64,000 bases of DNA from Candidatus Caenarcanales bacterium. GTDB lineage: Bacteria > Cyanobacteriota > Vampirovibrionia > LMEP-6097. The notes beneath the pieces are model-generated. The model was not told the DNA's origin. It was given only the letters and a program-made list of their open reading frames with translations, and searched no databases. Positions 2,767 through 16,517 of the stretch are shown one piece after another. Where the stretch lies: NCBI GenBank assembly GCA_013216135.1, contig JABSOS010000004.1, forward strand, positions 79,939-143,938. The letters are read 5' to 3'. Numbering within the stretch: position 1 is the first letter of the stretch; every line of letters starts with the position of its first letter. Both the position numbers and the translations under genes were made by a program.

Positions 2767-2979
2767 ATGAAAGATCAAGCGCTTAAATCTAATATAAAGA
2801 GAGAATCTTTGAGATTTAGAAAGATGGTTGTGAATAATGCCATTGCTCAACAAAGGATAGAAGGTAATAAATCTTCTCCGAGAGATACTTTACGTGATTT
2901 GAACTTGATAGCTAAAGGTGAAATGGACACTGAAACAGCTATACGTAATGTGAATAAATTTTATAAACTAAATGTCTAA
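2767..2979 (+). CDS. VbhA-like antitoxin of a class I Fic toxin
   Basis: 70 aa with AIAQQRIEGNK, resembling the [S/T]xxxE[G/N] inhibitory helix. Stop overlaps the Fic start (ATGTCTAA). A paralog lies at 31944-32126. Confidence 0.55.
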   Translation: MKDQALKSNIKRESLRFRKMVVNNAIAQQRIEGNKSSPRDTLRDLNLIAKGEMDTETAIRNVNKFYKLNV

Positions 2980-3568
2980 TAGGTATTCTGTTAATGATAA
3001 GTATACTTATCAAGATTCTGATGTATTAATTAATAGACTTAATATTAAGGATGCTCAGGCTTTGGAAGAAGCCGAATTTCGCTACTCTACTATTCGATCT
3101 GTTGAGCTAACTGAAAAATTTTTAAAGGTTCCATTTAATACTTATATTTTAAAAGATATTCATAAAAAGCTATTTAGTGATGTCTATGATTGGGCAGGTG
3201 AATATAGAACTGTTGATATATCCAAAGGTAATTCTCGCTTTTGTAATATGAATTTTATTGAATCTGAATTAGAGAGGGTTTATAAGGAAATAAAAAGTTT
3301 AAATTATCTTCAAAATCTAGATCAAAAAGAATTTAGTGAGCAAGTAGCGTATTTTATAGGTGAAATAAATGCTATTCACCCTTTTAGGGAAGGTAATGGA
3401 AGGACTCAGCGAGAGTTTATAAATCAGTTAGCTCTTAATTCTAATTATTACGTTAATTGGCATGATTGTTTGGTTGAAGATATACTGGAAGCCACTATCA
3501 AGAGCTTTGCTCAAGAATATGGTATGTTAAGTCAGTTGATTTTTGATAACTTAATTTTATTTGATTAG
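2972..3568 (+). CDS. fic: Fic-family protein (AMPylator/Doc-like toxin)
   Basis: Canonical Fic motif HPFREGNGRTQRE at about aa 145; 198 aa. Confidence 0.85.
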   Translation: MSNRYSVNDKYTYQDSDVLINRLNIKDAQALEEAEFRYSTIRSVELTEKFLKVPFNTYILKDIHKKLFSDVYDWAGEYRTVDISKGNSRFCNMNFIESELERVYKEIKSLNYLQNLDQKEFSEQVAYFIGEINAIHPFREGNGRTQREFINQLALNSNYYVNWHDCLVEDILEATIKSFAQEYGMLSQLIFDNLILFD

Positions 3569-5523: not shown

Positions 5524-5973
5524 ATGATACCTCTTTGTGAGTACGTCTGTGATACTTGTGGCGAGTTGATTGTTAGTCCTGATGAGGGCTACTTAGAATG
5601 GGTTGGTGGCGTAGGAATAAAAGACCATTCTTTTAAAATCATTCACCACAAACATGAATGTCAGAGGAAAGAAAAAGATCTACCTAATGGTTTTATAAAA
5701 GATGGAAGTTTGAGTCGCTATCTTGGTGTAGAAAATTTGCAAAACCTTTATACCTTACTCCATCCAGGACCTCTTTATGGTAAGGGAAAGGGGATTCTTG
5801 TTGAAGATATCAATGAATATATGGAAATACTCAGAAGGTTGACAATTCCTTACTACGAAGAAGCTCGTATCTATTGGCCATTAGCTGAAGAGGATGGTTT
5901 CTTTTGTGATGTAAATGAAGTATATCCATGCTTAGTTAGTACTCTGAAGTTGATAATAGAAAAATATAAATAA
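5524..5973 (+). CDS. Hypothetical protein with N-terminal CxxxCxxC zinc-ribbon-like motif
   Basis: 149 aa, CEYVCDTCG. No recognisable family. Confidence 0.45.
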   Translation: MIPLCEYVCDTCGELIVSPDEGYLEWVGGVGIKDHSFKIIHHKHECQRKEKDLPNGFIKDGSLSRYLGVENLQNLYTLLHPGPLYGKGKGILVEDINEYMEILRRLTIPYYEEARIYWPLAEEDGFFCDVNEVYPCLVSTLKLIIEKYK

Positions 5974-7116: not shown

Positions 7117-8091
7117 ATGCGACATTTTTTCTCTGAAGAAGATCTTTTCCAAATACTAACACCTTATGATTGGTTACACAGACCAGATAAAGAATGTACT
7201 TATTCTTTTAGTCCTAAACCTGGTGAAGGATTCCAAATCTCAATTAATTATTTAAGAGAGCATAAGTATAAGGACAGAGCAAATAAACTTATAGAAACTT
7301 CAAAAAACAATGGATTACCTAAAATTCATAATTTTTATCAATTAGATGATTTTGTCTCTAAAAATGGACTCATTTGTAGAATGTGGGTAAAGAAACAAGC
7401 ATCTAAATTTATTAAAGTTTCAATAACAGCCATGAATATTGATGAACATTTGGAACAAGTGAATAAATGCTTGGAAAGCTTTAGAATAGTAAAACCAAAT
7501 AAAGTTGACCACGTTAAAAGATGGTACAAGTTCGGCAAATTCCTAGAAGGAATGGCTGCAATGATGGCTGTTCTTAATAAATCATTGGAAAATAAATGCT
7601 ATATAGAAAGTGTGTGTGCATATACTAATTTGATAGATGCATATCTCAGATGTGCTCTTATTTTAAAGAATCAAATTAAGAATAGAAATAAAGACCTAGA
7701 TATTAGATGGATTTATCAAGGTATTGATGATAAGCCAATTTCTGAAAAAATGACTTACAAAGAAGCTTTTGAGGAAGGGATTATTAACGAAAAACAAAAA
7801 ACAACTTTAGACACATTATATAATGAGAGAAATAGAGTAATTCATAGATTCATTATTTCAGAAATAAGCTATTTTGATATTGAAGATATTTCATGCCAAC
7901 ACAACAAGTTATTTGAAGAGATTTGGCAAATTGTAAAAGATTTAGAAGATGAACAGATTGCTTTAAATGTTGGCATGACTAAACAAGTTGAGACAGATAT
8001 CAAAGATTTTGATTATCAAATGTTTATAAAAGAGAAATTGGAGTCTTTTACTTTACTAAAGCATTCTTCTAGTAACTATTCTAAAAAGTGA
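7117..8091 (+). CDS. HEPN-like (Abi-type) protein, partner of downstream reverse transcriptase
   Basis: 324 aa. ERNRVIHRF matches the HEPN Rx4-6H motif in the C-terminal third. Sits 96 bp upstream of RT1, co-oriented. Confidence 0.45.
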   Translation: MRHFFSEEDLFQILTPYDWLHRPDKECTYSFSPKPGEGFQISINYLREHKYKDRANKLIETSKNNGLPKIHNFYQLDDFVSKNGLICRMWVKKQASKFIKVSITAMNIDEHLEQVNKCLESFRIVKPNKVDHVKRWYKFGKFLEGMAAMMAVLNKSLENKCYIESVCAYTNLIDAYLRCALILKNQIKNRNKDLDIRWIYQGIDDKPISEKMTYKEAFEEGIINEKQKTTLDTLYNERNRVIHRFIISEISYFDIEDISCQHNKLFEEIWQIVKDLEDEQIALNVGMTKQVETDIKDFDYQMFIKEKLESFTLLKHSSSNYSKK

Positions 8092-8187
8092 AGCGACTAA
8101 TACTGTTTTTAATTGAAAGTTATTATAGCTGGCTTTTTAATAATTCTAAGCCTAGCTGTATAATAATTTTGAGTAAGTATAAATATT

Positions 8188-9594
8188 ATGACTGAGAATT
8201 CAATAACCATAGATGAGCAAGATATTGAATTATTTAACAGTGTATTTTCTAAGGAAAATTTAGAAAATACTTTTAAAAATAAGAAGAGCATATATTCAAA
8301 ACAATCATCTGGAATTGATAGAAAAAGCATTGAAAATTTTGAGAAAGAAACAAAAAATATTTTCCCAAAAATTTTAGAGAAAATAAAGGGTTCTGATTAT
8401 TATTTTTCCCCATATGTAGAAAGTTTATTTTTAAGAGGCCCAGATAAGCAACCACGAAGAATTTCTTTACCTACAATTCGAGATAAATTAACTCTAGACT
8501 TGGTTCGGCAATATTTAAATAAAAAGCTTGGTCAATCAGTAAAGAGGACTTTACCAAATATTTATATAAAGGAAATAAAAAAATTCTTTGAAGATAAGGA
8601 TACGAAATCTCTTAAATATAAAAGAATTGACATTTCAAGTTTTTATAAAAGTATCAATCACATAATTCTTTTGAACTTTCTTAGAAATATTAAAGTTCAT
8701 GATTCTGTTTATACTTTAATTAGAAGAGCTATAAAAACAAATACTTACAACAAATCAGTTTATTTAAGGAAAGACAAGGAAAATAACAATAAAGGTTTAC
8801 CAGAGGGACTTTCCATTTCAAATGTATTGGCTGAGTATTATTTACGTGAGATTGGTTTGATACCTATTCCTCAAGGTGTTTTATACCAACGCTACGTGGA
8901 TGATATTTTGATCTTGTATCAAGACGAACATGCTTTTCAGTCTTTCTATAATAAAATTGAAAGGAAATTCAAGAAACTTGATCTAAATATTTCGAAAGAT
9001 GAAGATAAGACGGGAGAGGGGAATCTTTCTAGTGATAAGGGCTTCAATTTTCTTGGTTATGATTTTAAAAAAGGTAAAATCTATGCAAAGCGAAGATCAC
9101 AGGTAAAGCTTATTAATACAATAATTAAATTGTTTACACAGTATAAGTATAGTACACAAAAAAATGAGTTGAAGAACCGAATATTGATAGAAGATGTTAA
9201 TGAAAAGCTTACTGGCGCTATGTCTGAAAGTATAAAGTATGGTTGGATATTTTTTTTCCGTGAAATAACTGATATTAACTTTTTGTACCAAGTTGATATT
9301 CTTGTGGAAAAGCTTCTTGATAGATATAAGCTTAGTGTTTCTAGTGAAGTGAAAAAAATAAAACAAATCTCAAAAGCTTATTATAAATTGAAAAAAAATG
9401 ACTATAGCTACTGTCATAATTATGATGCATATTCGACATTTTCAGATAAAATAAACTATCTTTCAGGAAGAGTAAAGGAATCTAGAGAAGATTTAAAAAC
9501 TAAGACATTTGAATATATTGATAGTCTATTTAAAGAGGTACGCAATAGAAATTTGAGTAATTTAGAAAAGGATAATGGGGTAGAATCATACTAG
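8188..9594 (+). CDS. Reverse transcriptase (RVT_1; retron/Abi/defense-associated-like, no endonuclease or maturase extension recognised)
   Basis: RT motifs: RRISLPTIRDKLTLDLV (1-2), LPEGLSISNVLAEYYL (4), YQRYVDDILIL (5, YVDD), KLDLNISKDEDKT (6), FNFLGYDF (7). Thumb-like KYGWIFFF. Confidence 0.85.
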   Translation: MTENSITIDEQDIELFNSVFSKENLENTFKNKKSIYSKQSSGIDRKSIENFEKETKNIFPKILEKIKGSDYYFSPYVESLFLRGPDKQPRRISLPTIRDKLTLDLVRQYLNKKLGQSVKRTLPNIYIKEIKKFFEDKDTKSLKYKRIDISSFYKSINHIILLNFLRNIKVHDSVYTLIRRAIKTNTYNKSVYLRKDKENNNKGLPEGLSISNVLAEYYLREIGLIPIPQGVLYQRYVDDILILYQDEHAFQSFYNKIERKFKKLDLNISKDEDKTGEGNLSSDKGFNFLGYDFKKGKIYAKRRSQVKLINTIIKLFTQYKYSTQKNELKNRILIEDVNEKLTGAMSESIKYGWIFFFREITDINFLYQVDILVEKLLDRYKLSVSSEVKKIKQISKAYYKLKKNDYSYCHNYDAYSTFSDKINYLSGRVKESREDLKTKTFEYIDSLFKEVRNRNLSNLEKDNGVESY

Positions 9595-9727
9595 AGTGCC
9601 TTCCTGTAAAATGGAACCAGTGTATTTTATTATACAAAGGGATATTGTTATTTTTGTGCTAGACACTACGAACCATATTCTTATCTAAGCAATATGGGAA
9701 CATCATTAAAAGTGGGCACTCAGATTT
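9594..9727 (+). ncRNA. Candidate structured non-coding element between RT1 and the TM protein, flanked by a 7-bp inverted repeat gagtgcc/ggcactc
   Basis: IR at 9594-9600 and 9715-9721 encloses about 114 nt. Reminiscent of the a1/a2 repeats that flank retron msr-msd, but in an atypical position (downstream of the RT). Confidence 0.2.
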
Positions 9728-10357
9728 ATGTTTAAAGCTATAAAGTCGGAAGTAGAGGATTTTCAAAGAAGAGTTAAAATTACACGTGGAGCCAGATATA
9801 ATGCTTTCAGAAGAAATGAAGCTAAAAGTATTTATTCTTCCTGTACTTTGATATTTTTATCAATATTTATTTTTGCTCTTAATTTACTTCCTTACTATAA
9901 TTTTTTGAATATTGATTTGTTAAAGGATAAGAACTCAAGTATTCAGTTTTCGGCACTAATACTTTCTGTTTTCTTGTTGGTTTTTTCTCTTCTAGAAGCC
10001 AATAATAGTTATAAGTATAATGCAGATAAATTTCATGGTTTTGCTATAGGTCTAGAAAATATTGTAAATGAATTAGATCGATGTTCTTCTGAAAATCAGT
10101 TAGAAAGAATAAAAACAGAGTATGTCGACCAGTTGGAAAAATCTTTTTTGAATCATTTAGAAATTGACTATTTGATTTCATCAGCAAGATACTACACACC
10201 AAGTAGTGATAGTAAATGTTTAGATAAAGTCCTTTATTGGTTGAAAATCATCATTTATGGTACGCGTAATTTTGTTTTTACTTTATTGCCCTATTTATTA
10301 CTTATCTCCCTGTCAGTATATTATGTTGCTTACTGTCAACTTAATATCATTAATTAA
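9728..10357 (+). CDS. Integral membrane protein (about 4 TM), possible effector of the RT cassette
   Basis: 209 aa. Hydrophobic segments IFLSIFIFALNLL, ALILSVFLLVFSLL, FVFTLLPYLLLISLSVYYVAY. Confidence 0.5.
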   Translation: MFKAIKSEVEDFQRRVKITRGARYNAFRRNEAKSIYSSCTLIFLSIFIFALNLLPYYNFLNIDLLKDKNSSIQFSALILSVFLLVFSLLEANNSYKYNADKFHGFAIGLENIVNELDRCSSENQLERIKTEYVDQLEKSFLNHLEIDYLISSARYYTPSSDSKCLDKVLYWLKIIIYGTRNFVFTLLPYLLLISLSVYYVAYCQLNIIN

Positions 10358-10402: not shown

Positions 10403-10666
10403 ATGCAAAAGTTTATATTAACCTTGTTCATTTTGCTTGCAGGTTTGTCTTCCTCTGCAAATCTAGATTACTATCAGTCAACAGATAATGATAGATCTAT
10501 TCAACTGCAAGATCAAGTTCAAGAAACTGTTTTTTTCAATACTAAATCTCATAAGTTTCATAAAATGTCTTGTATCTGGGCTAAGAAATGTACTGTTAAC
10601 TGTGTGATAATGGAAAAAGCTGAAGCAATTTTAAAGGGTGTGCCTTGTAAAGTTTGTGGTGGCTGA
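10403..10666 (+). CDS. Small secreted Cys-containing protein
   Basis: 87 aa. Signal-like MQKFILTLFILLAGLSSSA; C-terminal CKVCGG. Confidence 0.35.
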   Translation: MQKFILTLFILLAGLSSSANLDYYQSTDNDRSIQLQDQVQETVFFNTKSHKFHKMSCIWAKKCTVNCVIMEKAEAILKGVPCKVCGG

Positions 10667-11071: not shown

Positions 11072-11893
11072 TTGAAAATAACTCCTAATAAATTATATTC
11101 AAATTATCTAGTAGTATACTTTGACGTACTAGGTTGGAAAGATTTAACTTTAAATAGCCCGCTTGCCTGCAGTTTTGTGTCTAACCGGATTAATGGTCTT
11201 AGATATAAATTAAAATCGAGAAGTATCTTTAGTCGTGAAAAAGTAATATCATTCTTCTTCTCTGATTCCGTAATACTAACCCTTGAGCTTCCAATGGATA
11301 ATGAAAATAATTTAGAAAAACAAAAAATAATATTTTATCAAATTGCAGAATTGCAGTCAGAATTGTTTGAAAATTGGGGAGTGTTATTAAGAGGATTTAT
11401 CACTATTGGAGAATGTTTTATAGATCCTTTTGAACATGTTTGTTTTGGACCAGCAATTAATAAATCAGTATTGAAAGAGAAACTTATTTGTTTTCCAAAA
11501 ATAGTTTTAGATAAGGATCATTTTCCAGATAAGCTGATGGTTAATAATTCTAGGCAAAATTCTGTCCAAATTAATAGAAAAGATTCTTGGTGGAACAAAA
11601 AAGCACATAGAGGTGAATGTTATGAAGAATTTAAAGAAATTCAAGAATCTTTCTTCCTTGATTATATTAAGGTTCAAAAAAACTCATTAGATCGTTACGT
11701 TGGAGGATTCAATCAAGTCAACAACTTTCGTACATCCTTTAGAAGTAAATTAAATAAACAAATCACAAATGATGTGACAATGCAAAATGAGAAATTAAGC
11801 TTGAAATATATCTGGCTCACAAAATATTACGACAAGTGTTTTAGAAAAAATTCTTTTCATTTAGATTATAAAAATTTCACTAAATCCAATTAA
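11072..11893 (+). CDS. Class III nucleotidyl cyclase-like (CHD / palm fold) protein, tentative
   Basis: VVYFDVLGW resembles the cyclase FADIVGFT metal-binding motif. FFFSDSVILTL resembles the GD second-metal motif. LLRGFITIGECF ... FGPAINKSVLKE resembles RIGIHTG ... GDTVNxASRME. TTG start. Confidence 0.35.
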   Translation: MKITPNKLYSNYLVVYFDVLGWKDLTLNSPLACSFVSNRINGLRYKLKSRSIFSREKVISFFFSDSVILTLELPMDNENNLEKQKIIFYQIAELQSELFENWGVLLRGFITIGECFIDPFEHVCFGPAINKSVLKEKLICFPKIVLDKDHFPDKLMVNNSRQNSVQINRKDSWWNKKAHRGECYEEFKEIQESFFLDYIKVQKNSLDRYVGGFNQVNNFRTSFRSKLNKQITNDVTMQNEKLSLKYIWLTKYYDKCFRKNSFHLDYKNFTKSN

Positions 11894-11969: not shown

Positions 11970-14900
11970 ATGTTTAGTGATAGCTATTTTTTAGAATTAC
12001 AATTTGAAAATAGGGTGTATAGTCTAAACTCTTATGAATTTCAGAAATTTTTTGAAGATATTATGCTAAAAAAATTTCCTGGACATTTTCAAAGAGTTAG
12101 ACCATATGGAAATAAAGGTGATGGTGGTAATGACGGTTTCATGAAAGAGGATGGGAAGTATTTTCAATCCTACGCACCTTTAAAAGTCAATGAAGACAAA
12201 GAAAAAGAAGCTATACAAAAGTTTAGAGATGACTTTCAAAAACTCTTATCAAGTGAATGGGGCAATTTTTCTAAAATTAAAGAATATTACTTTGTTTATA
12301 ACGATAAATTTTATGGCACTACTATCGAATTTGAGAAAGAACTTCACGTTTACCAAGAGGGTTACCCACAAATAAAATTTTATTTATTAGGAACAGATCA
12401 ACTTAAATCCATATTCAAAGAATTAAGTGAAGATGATTATAAAAGTCTAAATTTTAATACAGATAAATCAGCTTCTCATCTTATTGTAGAAGCATACCTT
12501 AATAATATTGAGAATCAAATAAAATTAAACAATGTTCATATTGCTGAAAATGCACTAGACTTATTAGACCAAATCCTTAATTCTGAGGAATTAAAAAAAA
12601 ATTCACAATATATTGATCTCTATATTAAGAACTCTGTCATGAAGTATAAGTATTTTTTACTAAAAGAGAGATTTCAAAATGCTATTGACACCTTAGAAAA
12701 ACTAACTGCAAGATATCCTGAACGTTGTGAACCACTTTTACATCTGGCTGATTATTACTGTAGCCAGGATGAGATAAACTTAGCTTCAAGCTTATATGAA
12801 AAAGCAACAACAAAAATAAATTTTGGTGATTATTGGCTTAATAAATATGTTCCAATATATATCAAAATTAAAAGTAATTTGTCCTTTGTTGAAGATGATT
12901 TTGTCTTATTGAGAAGCTTGAATGATAATCAAAGAGCATGTTTCTATAGATTATTTTCTATGTATTACTTAAATAAAGATATAGAAAAATCTCTTGAATA
13001 TATAGATAAAGCTATAGAGTTTGACCCAAAAAATCTCTCTTTTATTCTAACTAAACTCAATATATACAAAGCTCAGTTAGTGAATAACTATTCTGAAAAA
13101 CTGTATAGGCTTGAATTTGTAGATAATATGGAAAAAGTTATTATCTATATTGATGAATCTTTTTCTTTCATATCCGTTAGAAGTAAATTACTTTTACAGA
13201 TGAATAAACTCTGTATTCTCTGGTGTCAAGAGAAAATACAAAGCTGTATTCTGTTACTTGAAGGTATTTCAGAGTTACTGGTTGAATGTGATTTTAATAA
13301 AGGAATCGATTCTGTAATCTGTGAGCTATTAACTTCAGTTGTAACTCCAGACCTATTTGAAGTTATTCTTGATTATTGCCTAGATAATAAATCCAAACAA
13401 TTTTCTGATTTATTACTAAAATTAATTTTCAATCATGCGCTAAGGGATCAAAAATTAAAACAACAAGCTCAAGTTTTTTTTGAATCAATTTCAGCCAATC
13501 AGGGCTCTAAATATATAAAACTAATGAGCTTTATTAACTCTGGAGATGAAGAAGAATTTATTAAAATTGTTAGTGCTGACACTAATTTTCTTCTAATGCT
13601 GGCAGAAACATTAAAGATAAATCCTGAATTTAGGAAAAAAATAATTTTTCATTTGAGAGACTCTAATAATGAATATTCAAATATACTTTATACAATATTT
13701 TTATTTGATATTGGTGAAGATAAAGAGGCTTTTGAGTATTTAAAAAAAATTGATTTGAGAAACATAACAGTTCCCCAATATGATCCTTTACTCAGAGTTG
13801 CTTTGAAAAATGAAGCTTGGGATTTGGCTGAAATAATAATAGTGCAAATAATTGATAAAGAAGAAAATGATAAATATCGATATTTTTTAAATACACAGTT
13901 ATTAAACTGCTATGTTCATTTAGGAAAGCACCTTGAAGCAACAAAAGTTGGAAAAGCCTTATTAAAGTCGGAACAATTTAATAGTTCTGATACTGAAAAA
14001 ATTTTAGAGCTGTTACTATATTCTTACCTCAAACTGAGTCAACATTCTAATAGATATAAAAATGAGGTAAAAGAAATATATTATAGTTATCGTGAATATA
14101 ATTTTTCTTTGAATTTTCTTTTAAATATTGCTAGTTTTGTTCATGCATATCTTGGTACAGGTGATGACCTTGTAAGTTTAATAGTCAGATCTATATCCAA
14201 ATTAAATAAAAATCCAAATCCACTGGAGTATGCTCAAATATTTACGGTTCTAACTTTAAAAAACCAAGTCAAAATTGATATTGAGTCTAGTAAGAAAACT
14301 GTTACTGAAGATTCATTTGTGAAAATTATAGAAGATGATGACTGGTACTATATTGGTAACGGAAATTGTTTATGTGCTATTCCTCTTCAAGAAACACAAA
14401 CTAAATACCATCAACTATTCAATGCCTCTTTAGGTGACAAAAATATTGAAAAGATATTTGATTTAAGGCAATTTTTATACTATAAAGCTAGGGAAATATT
14501 TAATAAACAAATAGAAAAAGATAATTTGGACAATATGAAGAAATTCAACTTACTGGATTCTTCGGGTAATATTGATATAAATAGATTTAAAGATACAATA
14601 GCTGAGTTACAAAACTCTGAATCTACATTTTTTGATAAATATTCTGAAAATACATATCCATTAGCTATGCTTGCTTTATTTGAAGGAGGTTTAATACCTT
14701 CAATTGCAAAGATTCAGAGAGAAAATAAAGGCTACATTCACTCAAGTGATGGAAGTATTAATGAAATTGAAAGACAAAGCTCGCTTATTAAAGAGTTGAT
14801 TAAAGCTAAGTCTGAGCTTTACATTGATACAACATCAATTCTTTTCTTAAGTGAGGTGGGTATTTTTAACCACTTTATTAATTTATTTTCAAAGTACAAA

Positions 14901-15788
14901 ATAGTTCAGTCATCAATTAATTTTTTGTCTGACACTTTAGACACCTATAAATATAGGAAGGGAACATTGGGAACTGCAAGTGTCATAAATAATGAGCTTG
15001 TTTACTTACCTTTCAATAAAGCTCGAAAGAAGCAAATTCAAAAATTTGAGAAAAGGTTACTTGAATCAATTAAGTTTCTCAATAAGGATCTCAACAGGAT
15101 TGATTCATTATCAAAAGCTTCAAAGTCTTCTGTTCCTTCTGAACAGAGAATACCACCAGAACTCTGTGATGGAGCGATTATGGCTAAGAAAAATAAATTG
15201 CCAATTATGACAGATGACTATGTTTACCTTCACTGGAACGCTCTTGAGACAAACTTAGAACCACCTCAATATTTTTCATCTATAGCTTTTTTAGAGTATT
15301 TGTATGAGCAAAAAATAATAAATTTTGAAGAATACTTGGATTGCTTTTATTATTTCTCTTCATATAGATTTAGGTTTATGAGTATCAATAAACAGATTTT
15401 GTATAAAACTATATTTGGTGATGATCTTATAGTGTTGGTTAATCCAGGTAACATAAGGAAACTTAACCTTCATTTGATTTTATCAAGAGACTATGGTGTT
15501 TCACTTCAAAATTGTTTTAGATTAATTGGTGAGTTTGTTTATGATTTAGTAAAAAACAAATCAATAATATTTAGTGTACTGAATGATGTTTTAATCAGTT
15601 TATTAAATTATCTACCACTTGAATATAAATCCATCTTGTCTTATAAAATGATTGTTGACTATTGTACAAAGAGATACGAAGCTGAAAAAAAAGAAAGAAC
15701 AATTATTGACTTGAAAAATGACTTTCTAGAGAAGAGGTTAAGTCAATTACAAGATGTGTGTGGTTTAACCACTCTCTTGAAATTTTAG
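11970..15788 (+). CDS. 1272-aa protein: N-terminal Mrr-like PD-(D/E)xK nuclease motif + long alpha-helical/TPR-like repeat region; no Walker A
   Basis: YGNKGDGGNDGF ... YFQSYAPLKV resembles the Mrr_cat GxDGGxDG signature. The rest is predicted helical repeats. No GxxxxGK[ST]. Confidence 0.6.
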   Translation: MFSDSYFLELQFENRVYSLNSYEFQKFFEDIMLKKFPGHFQRVRPYGNKGDGGNDGFMKEDGKYFQSYAPLKVNEDKEKEAIQKFRDDFQKLLSSEWGNFSKIKEYYFVYNDKFYGTTIEFEKELHVYQEGYPQIKFYLLGTDQLKSIFKELSEDDYKSLNFNTDKSASHLIVEAYLNNIENQIKLNNVHIAENALDLLDQILNSEELKKNSQYIDLYIKNSVMKYKYFLLKERFQNAIDTLEKLTARYPERCEPLLHLADYYCSQDEINLASSLYEKATTKINFGDYWLNKYVPIYIKIKSNLSFVEDDFVLLRSLNDNQRACFYRLFSMYYLNKDIEKSLEYIDKAIEFDPKNLSFILTKLNIYKAQLVNNYSEKLYRLEFVDNMEKVIIYIDESFSFISVRSKLLLQMNKLCILWCQEKIQSCILLLEGISELLVECDFNKGIDSVICELLTSVVTPDLFEVILDYCLDNKSKQFSDLLLKLIFNHALRDQKLKQQAQVFFESISANQGSKYIKLMSFINSGDEEEFIKIVSADTNFLLMLAETLKINPEFRKKIIFHLRDSNNEYSNILYTIFLFDIGEDKEAFEYLKKIDLRNITVPQYDPLLRVALKNEAWDLAEIIIVQIIDKEENDKYRYFLNTQLLNCYVHLGKHLEATKVGKALLKSEQFNSSDTEKILELLLYSYLKLSQHSNRYKNEVKEIYYSYREYNFSLNFLLNIASFVHAYLGTGDDLVSLIVRSISKLNKNPNPLEYAQIFTVLTLKNQVKIDIESSKKTVTEDSFVKIIEDDDWYYIGNGNCLCAIPLQETQTKYHQLFNASLGDKNIEKIFDLRQFLYYKAREIFNKQIEKDNLDNMKKFNLLDSSGNIDINRFKDTIAELQNSESTFFDKYSENTYPLAMLALFEGGLIPSIAKIQRENKGYIHSSDGSINEIERQSSLIKELIKAKSELYIDTTSILFLSEVGIFNHFINLFSKYKIVQSSINFLSDTLDTYKYRKGTLGTASVINNELVYLPFNKARKKQIQKFEKRLLESIKFLNKDLNRIDSLSKASKSSVPSEQRIPPELCDGAIMAKKNKLPIMTDDYVYLHWNALETNLEPPQYFSSIAFLEYLYEQKIINFEEYLDCFYYFSSYRFRFMSINKQILYKTIFGDDLIVLVNPGNIRKLNLHLILSRDYGVSLQNCFRLIGEFVYDLVKNKSIIFSVLNDVLISLLNYLPLEYKSILSYKMIVDYCTKRYEAEKKERTIIDLKNDFLEKRLSQLQDVCGLTTLLKF

Positions 15789-16010: not shown

Positions 16011-16517
16011 ATGAGATCAGTCTTATTTATAATTCTCACATTATTTGTTTTTGCTGGAGGTTATTATGCTGGTAAAAATTCCAAGAATCTAGAATTTACT
16101 GATTCAAAGCCAGAGCTTTTTGTTAAAGCTGAAACAAAGATGGAAAGTTATCAAAACACCTATCTAAAACCTCTAAGGGTAATTGATGGTGACACCATAG
16201 AATTTGAAATAGTTAATCTCCCATATCCAGAAATCTCTATTCTAAAGCTTAGAATCTTCGGAGTTGATACTCCTGAAAAGTCATGGCGTACAAAATGTGA
16301 ACAAGAGAAAAATCTAGCAAACCTAGCTTCATCTTTTACAGAAGACTTATTTAATAAAGCAGATCATAAAGAGATAAAGCTTATGAAGTGGGGTAAATAC
16401 GGTGGTAGGGTTTTAGGTGATATTTATTTAGATGGTAAATCTTTAAAAGAAGAGCTTTTAAGTAAAGGGTTAGCTAAAGAATACTTTGGTAAGGAAAAGG
16501 TATCTTGGTGTGAATAA
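16011..16517 (+). CDS. Secreted/membrane-anchored thermonuclease (staphylococcal nuclease, SNase family)
   Basis: N-terminal hydrophobic anchor. VIDGDTIEF, RIFGVDTPEK, KYGGRVLGDIY match the SNase Ca-binding and catalytic motifs. Confidence 0.8.
   Translation: MRSVLFIILTLFVFAGGYYAGKNSKNLEFTDSKPELFVKAETKMESYQNTYLKPLRVIDGDTIEFEIVNLPYPEISILKLRIFGVDTPEKSWRTKCEQEKNLANLASSFTEDLFNKADHKEIKLMKWGKYGGRVLGDIYLDGKSLKEELLSKGLAKEYFGKEKVSWCE

Follow-up and report, generated by a model that had tools for sequence, protein, structure and literature searches.

We describe here a locus in a 64,000-nt stretch of DNA (the window) from a Candidatus Caenarcanales bacterium (assembly GCA_013216135.1, contig JABSOS010000004.1, positions 79,939 to 143,938 of the forward strand). 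The source is a metagenome-assembled genome (MAG) named Candidatus Caenarcaniphilales at NCBI, a non-photosynthetic cyanobacterial lineage. The genes of the locus all lie on the forward strand. A gene encoding a 324-aa protein (7117–8091) is followed, after a gap of 96 bp (8092–8187), by a reverse transcriptase (RT) gene encoding 468 aa (8188–9594). A second gap of 133 bp (9595–9727) separates the RT gene from a gene for a 209-aa membrane protein (9728–10357), and an open reading frame (ORF) of 87 aa (10403–10666) lies further downstream. The 324-aa protein (HRT47_01785) and the RT (HRT47_01790) are both annotated as 'hypothetical protein'. A first-pass annotation of the DNA had proposed an RT-based defence module of the Abi/DRT type with a novel or split arrangement; the ORFs, the YVDD and RNRVIH motifs, both gaps and a 7-bp inverted repeat around the second gap are all found where it had placed them. 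In our reading, positions 8188–10357 very probably constitute a DRT10 (UG17, class 2 UG/Abi) anti-phage system in the order RT, non-coding RNA (ncRNA), SLATT (the layout of UG17-B), and the upstream gene, which encodes a HEPN domain, is separate from it.

The best PADLOC match to the RT is RT_UG17 (9.5e-107, 355.5 bits), which aligns RT residues 13–464 with positions 4–426 of a 429-position profile. The second-best family is Drt3a at 1.5e-31, and Drt9 and Drt2 match at ~1e-9. Pfam finds RVT_1 (4.5e-16) and no further domain, in agreement with the earlier description of an RT that lacks fused effector domains. The YVDD motif (residues 236–239, encoded by 8893–8904) is invariant across 35 aligned UG17 RTs, and the protein ends in ...LEKDNGVESY, with S467 and Y468 encoded by 9586–9591 directly in front of the stop codon. 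A terminal Tyr or Ser is found in 48 of the 57 RTs from loci where the RT gene precedes the SLATT gene and in 59 of the 61 RTs from loci with the reverse order (107/118 in all). In the characterised E. coli DRT10 RTs, the priming residues S456/Y444 are likewise C-terminal (PMC12632851); S467 and Y468 occupy the position of these protein-priming residues and, by analogy, may have the same role. By its profile match and conserved residues, the protein is shown to be a UG17 RT with an intact YVDD motif and a terminal Ser-Tyr pair. A group II intron or another mobile retroelement would offer a different origin for the gene, and the NCBIfam model for group II RTs/maturases does match it at 106.6 bits, as expected for any RT. 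However, this score is far under the cut-off of 300, no maturase or endonuclease domain is present, Rfam detects no intron RNA at either threshold, and the UG17-specific match spans the full length of the protein. We regard such an origin as hardly credible.

The 209-aa protein is a member of the SLATT_5 family (Pfam 4.7e-32, PADLOC RTasSLATT 1.2e-30, NCBIfam SLATT_5 6.8e-30). It had been described as a 4-TM (four-transmembrane) protein: its membrane character holds, but a Kyte-Doolittle scan gives three hydrophobic segments, two in the N-terminal part (~32–60 and 69–94) and one at the C-terminus (182–208). The RT and SLATT_5 genes are adjacent, on the same strand, and both ORFs are intact. 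A conserved pairing of UG17 RTs with SLATT proteins was reported in 2022 (PMC9226505), and the combination of both in the window bears out the proposal of a UG/DRT-type cassette in which a transmembrane effector follows the RT. With its RT, its membrane protein and non-coding DNA between repeats, the locus also bears a superficial likeness to a retron, which combines an RT with an a1/a2-flanked msr/msd ncRNA and a 2TM effector. Yet the 25 best PADLOC matches to the RT include no retron model, while UG17 scores 355 bits. The non-coding element lies 3′ of the RT gene and not 5′, where the gap measures just 96 bp, the effector is SLATT_5, the partner of UG17 RTs, and Rfam gives no match. That the locus is a retron is therefore exceedingly improbable.

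DRT10 systems require just an RT, an ncRNA and a SLATT protein (PMC12632851). The RT produces kilobase-long, single-stranded tandem-repeat DNA in a protein-primed, telomerase-like manner, priming on a C-terminal Ser or Tyr and using a short A-B-A′ template in a loop 3′ of the last stem-loop of the ncRNA (PMC12632851). Cryo-electron microscopy shows two RTs per pseudo-symmetric ncRNA, with template boundaries set by the distance from two stem anchors (10.64898/2026.06.29.735271). UG17 has been split into three subtypes, one of which has the RT gene followed by the SLATT gene, with a ~200-bp gap that holds the ncRNA (10.64898/2026.04.29.721553). Because an RT gene, a gap with an ncRNA and a SLATT gene in this order is the published UG17-B layout, the arrangement is not novel, contrary to what had been proposed for it (10.64898/2026.04.29.721553; PMC12632851). 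The window locus is a divergent member of an already published system; it was not found in the supplements of two DRT10 papers. Its gene order and gap, together with the scores of its SLATT protein on hidden Markov models (HMMs) built for the two gene orders (109 bits for RT-then-SLATT vs 73 bits for SLATT-then-RT), point to the B subtype; the RT tree gives no clear placement.

We compared the window with 160 UG17 loci from genome and metagenome contigs, collected with an alignment of RTs as the query; a scan of genome contigs with the window RT as the lone query gave no matches. Gene order could be classified for 128 loci. The RT gene comes first in 66 of them, most with gaps of ~100–240 bp, and the SLATT gene comes first in the other 62, where the genes are tightly coupled. 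The nearest homologue of the window RT (P0008, 48% identity) has the same gene order, a 134-bp gap and a different upstream gene (129 aa); no closer relative was present in the metagenome scan. RT relatives with DNA in the comparison share at most ~38% identity with the window RT. One related locus is of separate interest (L086/L087 4281–9688, RT P0009): an mSLOG/DUF4326 gene precedes the RT gene, and 3′ of the RT gene lie a 595-bp gap, a 138-aa ORF that has no SLATT match, and Mu-type transposase and IstB genes. Here, the SLATT gene may have been disrupted or replaced.

The gap between the RT and SLATT genes is bounded by the 7-bp inverted repeat GAGTGCC (9594–9600) and GGCACTC (9715–9721), and a U9601–G9714 pair lengthens the resulting basal stem to 8 bp. 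Its 5′ arm begins on the G of the TAG stop codon of the RT gene, and the SLATT start codon follows 6 nt past its end. The stem delimits a candidate DRT10 ncRNA of 128 nt on the forward strand (9594–9721). The repeat alone is weak evidence; its meaning comes from the comparison with related loci. Watson-Crick stems of 7 bp or more flank 88% of 59 RT-then-SLATT spacers vs 26% of shuffles, and stems of 8 bp or more flank 80% vs 8%. In such loci, the basal stem often starts within the RT stop codon and ends ~3–25 nt from the SLATT start. Measured from the final base of the stop codon, 22 of 52 stems have a 5′ arm that starts at offset −1 or 0, and stems in related spacers span 104–175 nt. With an offset of 0 and a span of 128 nt, the predicted window stem sits exactly at the position and span typical of the basal stem in this family.

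Within the basal stem, hairpins are predicted at 9601–9616, 9617–9640 and 9673–9697, and the fold of 9641–9672 is less certain. Pair probabilities are 0.99 for both the basal stem and the hairpin at 9673–9697, and ~0.8 for the two 5′ hairpins. Among the related spacers, MAFFT and RNAalifold applied to all sequences recover the basal stem only; a structure of five helices emerges from subgroup alignments and from covariance models that started with ten Bacteroidota-type spacers and were extended in three successive rounds (R1–R3) with Bacteroidota, cyanobacterial and other RT-then-SLATT members. In this five-helix structure, 94% of the cells pair and 25 of the 27 pairs change on both sides, a level of covariation that 0/500 shuffles reach, while slid controls pair at 41–55%, all of these figures coming from an alignment fitted to the model and thus biased in its favour. 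R3 recognises 38/60 related loci, nine of them outside the seed alignment. In its first 23 nt (GCCUUCC, a loop and GGAAC), the window candidate is similar to the consensus that the family shows where the basal stem ends and the first hairpin forms.

The candidate RNA has a putative template loop (loop B, 9698–9714, forward strand) with the sequence GAACAUCAUUAAAAGU(G), which follows the last strong hairpin and precedes the 3′ arm of the basal stem. The loop GAACAUCAUUAAAAGU is mostly unpaired in the predicted ensemble, and its length is within the range of 14–24 nt seen for the loop after the last hairpin in 23 related ncRNAs. In these, an A-B-A′ pattern starting at most 4 nt from the hairpin occurs in 20 of 23 loops (13.9 ± 2.2 in shuffles), and one with A of at least 4 nt in 13 of 23 (4.5 in shuffles), counts that are not independent since some rows are close relatives. 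The window loop contains two A-B-A′ candidates, CAU-CAU (a 3-nt repeat) and AA-CAUCAUU-AA (a 9-nt repeat). Its role as template is putative, by analogy with the E. coli systems (PMC12632851) and with the anchor-based template boundaries seen in their structure (10.64898/2026.06.29.735271).

By the same analogy, the system would most likely operate as follows. The spacer RNA of ~128 nt would fold into a multi-hairpin scaffold that binds the RT, and the RT would prime DNA synthesis on its own C-terminal Tyr468 or Ser467. It would then repeatedly copy a short template within 9698–9714, slipping back on the A-B-A′ repeat, with single-stranded tandem-repeat DNA, (ATG)n or (AATGATGTT)n, as the predicted product. 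This complementary DNA (cDNA), or a shift in its amount or state upon infection, would activate the SLATT protein and lead to membrane damage and abortive infection. With a basal stem that reaches from the RT stop codon to 6 nt short of the SLATT start, the layout suggests that the RT gene, the ncRNA and the SLATT gene are co-transcribed and read from one transcript. In such a transcript, the basal stem could gate or occlude translation initiation of SLATT.

Several observations weigh against this interpretation. Defence and cDNA synthesis have been demonstrated for E. coli-type systems with the SLATT-then-RT order only, and every step of the mechanism above is modelled on them. In a crude neighbour-joining tree, the window RT forms a deep lone branch adjoining the SLATT-then-RT clade, and its preference for the RT-then-SLATT HMM amounts to just 17 bits (371 vs 354). 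The window fold is a single-sequence prediction, as the nearest relatives with DNA are ~38% identical, and the z-scores of its minimum free energy are only −2.0 and −2.75, which is weak in isolation. The same is true of the basal stem, as 9% of dinucleotide shuffles of the spacer contain a 7-bp Watson-Crick stem at their flanks and 3% contain one that starts at the stop codon. The covariance models R1–R3 score the window spacer at no more than 4.0 bits, on the correct strand and span, and so do not detect it; an nhmmer profile of the spacers does not detect it either. Finally, 57% of shuffled window loops have an equivalent A-B-A′ pattern, and the pattern in the window itself therefore carries no weight.

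A rival reading is a decayed or incomplete DRT10 system, in which the spacer would encode no functional ncRNA and would be just untranslated DNA whose inverted repeat arose by chance. The missing covariance-model and sequence-profile matches and the frequency of the stem in shuffles (3–9%) speak for such decay. Against it, both the RT ORF and the SLATT ORF are intact, with catalytic and family-invariant residues retained, the stem has the position and span typical of the family, and the first 23 nt resemble the family consensus. Moreover, 22 of 60 clearly related loci likewise escape R3, so that non-detection is not specific to the window locus. We consider decay unlikely. The earlier proposal of an ncRNA 3′ of the RT gene, in the repeat-bounded spacer, agrees in position with the related loci, and an ncRNA in the window is probable on the basis of position and architecture. 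We grade it no higher because no model detects the spacer and equivalents of its loop repeats occur in over half of shuffled loops. A covariance analysis of the spacer had also been suggested: the family structure does covary, but the window spacer goes undetected by the resulting models. We do not claim membership of an RNA family for it, and a search of the region and of the full window against Rfam gives no RNA family at either threshold.

Read as a DRT10 system, the locus can be set beside its characterised references, the E. coli systems Eco1DRT10, Eco2DRT10 and Eco3DRT10 (Tang et al. 2025, PMC12632851) and that of Escherichia sp. E3659 (Sanchez-Nieto et al. 2026). Like these, it combines a UG17-clade RT with YVDD and a terminal Ser/Tyr with a same-strand SLATT_5 gene. 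Directly 5′ of the SLATT gene, it also has ~130 nt of non-coding DNA with a predicted closing basal stem and, after a strong predicted hairpin, a 3′ loop of 16–17 nt with short direct repeats. Unlike the E. coli systems, in which the order is ncRNA, SLATT, RT, the window has the order RT, ncRNA, SLATT. Its candidate ncRNA bears no detectable similarity to theirs in sequence or by model, its host does not belong to the Pseudomonadota, and it is known here from sequence alone. With UG17-B systems such as that of Methylotenera mobilis JLW8 (10.64898/2026.04.29.721553), the window locus shares gene order, gap size and the position of the candidate ncRNA, and its SLATT protein scores closer to this group. 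UG17-B has been described mainly from Pseudomonadota and Bacteroidota, whereas the window RT branches deep and its spacer is unmatched by R1–R3. DRT9 (UG28) and DRT2 (UG2) likewise pair an RT that has no extra domains with a structured ncRNA that contains a short internal template, and DRT9 is protein-primed like DRT10. In both, however, the ncRNA lies upstream of the RT gene, and the products are poly-dA (DRT9) and a concatenated gene (DRT2).

The gene upstream of the RT encodes a 324-aa protein for which a HEPN-type domain had been proposed from the ERNRVIH motif (R238–H243, encoded by 7828–7845), and this proposal is supported by motif conservation and a predicted fold. R238 and H243 are invariant in six close homologues, and across a set of 62 diverse family members, conservation is 90% or higher for R238, N239, H243 and R244. 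An AlphaFold model (pLDDT 82) has two domains: an N-terminal PsbP/Mog1/BT_1490-like domain (~1–125), which matches BT_1490 (PDB 3hlz) and PsbP folds, and a C-terminal HepT-like HEPN domain (~127–290), for which a helical-bundle HEPN fold is predicted. Pfam gives no match for the window protein itself. Its relative P0246 matches Pfam HepT-like at 3.5e-8, above the cut-off, and a profile of the 62 family members finds only HepN toxins in PDB (E 0.1), with RNxVVHRY aligned on RNiavHdY. The HEPN assignment stands because relatives match Pfam HepT-like and the HepN motif in PDB aligns in register. HepT/HepN toxins of MNT-HEPN systems (e.g. SO_3166, PDB 5yep) share the RNxxxH(R/x)(F/Y) motif, which aligns on their RX4HXY; unlike them, the window protein is a two-domain fusion of ~320 aa with no adjacent MNT antitoxin gene. 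An exhaustive profile search finds at least 323 cluster representatives of the family, 127 of them at E ≤1e-30, and many representatives consist of a stand-alone C-terminal domain of ~190 aa. This PsbP-like/HEPN family has no curated family of its own.

AbiA is an RT-HEPN fusion, and the first-pass annotation had seen in the 324-aa protein a split AbiA partner. This would make the locus a four-part system in which a split-off, AbiA-like HEPN effector joins RT, ncRNA and membrane protein. The neighbouring position of the two genes in the window is not repeated in the loci compared. None of the 160 UG17 loci has a member of the HEPN family within 3–4 kb of the RT in single-sequence or profile searches, and seven loci with homologues of the 324-aa protein have no RT or SLATT match in the contig stretches examined. 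A homologue of 65% identity shares only the gene itself with the window: the DNA similarity (72.5%) does not extend past the ends of the gene, and there is no RT ORF after it. At the P0008 locus, as described above, another gene occupies the upstream position. The RT is of the UG17 type and not AbiA-type, the effector of its family is SLATT, and the published DRT10 systems work with RT, ncRNA and SLATT (PMC12632851). A split AbiA is thus quite improbable. Judged by these comparisons, the 324-aa gene is separate from DRT10 and appears to be independently mobile, and its product probably acts on its own, as a HepT-type RNase toxin or in defence. In two other contigs, a homologue adjoins TPR and FRG-domain proteins, with ClpP, DUF5906 and D12-methyltransferase genes in the region (L001 6001–9259), or adjoins a DUF3368 (PIN-like) gene and an HTH/M78 peptidase gene (L002 5012–8900); these are possible mobile-element or toxin-antitoxin contexts. 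One might also imagine that the PsbP-like/HepT-HEPN protein has been recruited as a lineage-specific extra arm of DRT10, for instance as an RNase that the tandem-repeat cDNA activates and that works together with a SLATT pore or in its place. We see little chance of this. If true, it would make the locus a four-part DRT10 variant; no conserved linkage is seen, and a recent local association is conceivable.

The 96-bp gap between the HEPN gene and the RT gene holds an imperfect 9-bp hairpin (8127–8135/8148–8157) that overlaps a promoter-like sequence, TTAATA-16-TATAAT (8137–8164). The hairpin (8127–8157) could be a terminator of the HEPN gene or an operator of an RT promoter. Promoter-like matches are not above shuffles (24 vs 25.4 expected), and the promoter scan is uninformative since the DNA is AT-rich. 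The gap is too short and already occupied, and leaves no room for a DRT-type ncRNA. On the other side of the module, the 87-aa ORF (10403–10666, forward strand) encodes a protein with a signal-peptide-like N-terminus, as judged by eye, and had been described as a small secreted protein. It has no family match in Pfam, PADLOC, NCBIfam or PHROGs, and weak homologues (E 4e-5) occur at one of the 160 UG17 loci, where they lie downstream of the SLATT gene (L038 6809–7045 and 7281–7517). The protein is a neighbour and not a conserved component of DRT10. Its C-terminus carries a Cys/His motif (FHxxxC...C..N...EA...G.PC..C) that, by eye, has the look of an Ada-type zinc-binding site.

More widely, ~3–23 kb of the window looks like a defence island, and a GC trough of 26–29% runs across ~6–16 kb, compared with 30–39% elsewhere in the window. 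Besides the HEPN gene and DRT10, the island includes a Fic protein of the PDC-S04 type (2972–3568, 6.7e-73), a 1272-aa TPR protein with a sub-threshold PIN domain match (11970–15788), an SNase-like protein (16011–16517) and a tyrosine integrase (18693–19709, forward strand). Next to the integrase, also on the forward strand, lie the genes for a 337-aa SIR2-like protein (19742–20755), with weak PADLOC matches (5e-8), and for a second RT of 423 aa (20749–22020), whose start overlaps the preceding stop by 7 nt. No DRT or retron family is a good fit for the second RT (generic RT 1.2e-36, UG26 5.5e-25, group II model 146 bits at a cut-off of 300). Together, the SIR2-like protein and this RT may form another, unclassified RT-based defence module. 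Two further ORFs on the forward strand match phage protein families to which no function has been assigned: 5524–5973 (phrog_35745, 1.6e-8) and 11072–11893 (phrog_23933, 4.4e-9).

DRT10 is of current interest for its protein-primed, telomerase-like synthesis of tandem-repeat DNA. The locus described here adds a divergent member to the less-studied RT-ncRNA-SLATT order, from a Candidatus Caenarcaniphilales MAG. Beyond the window, the family comparison extends the A-B-A′ template signature to RT-then-SLATT systems. The PsbP-like/HEPN family, for its part, may represent RNase toxins or defence genes that act alone. The candidate ncRNA of the window escapes models built from other members, and the locus would therefore be well suited to asking which share of the RNA is really required, and also whether template choice obeys the geometric rule reported for the E. 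coli systems.

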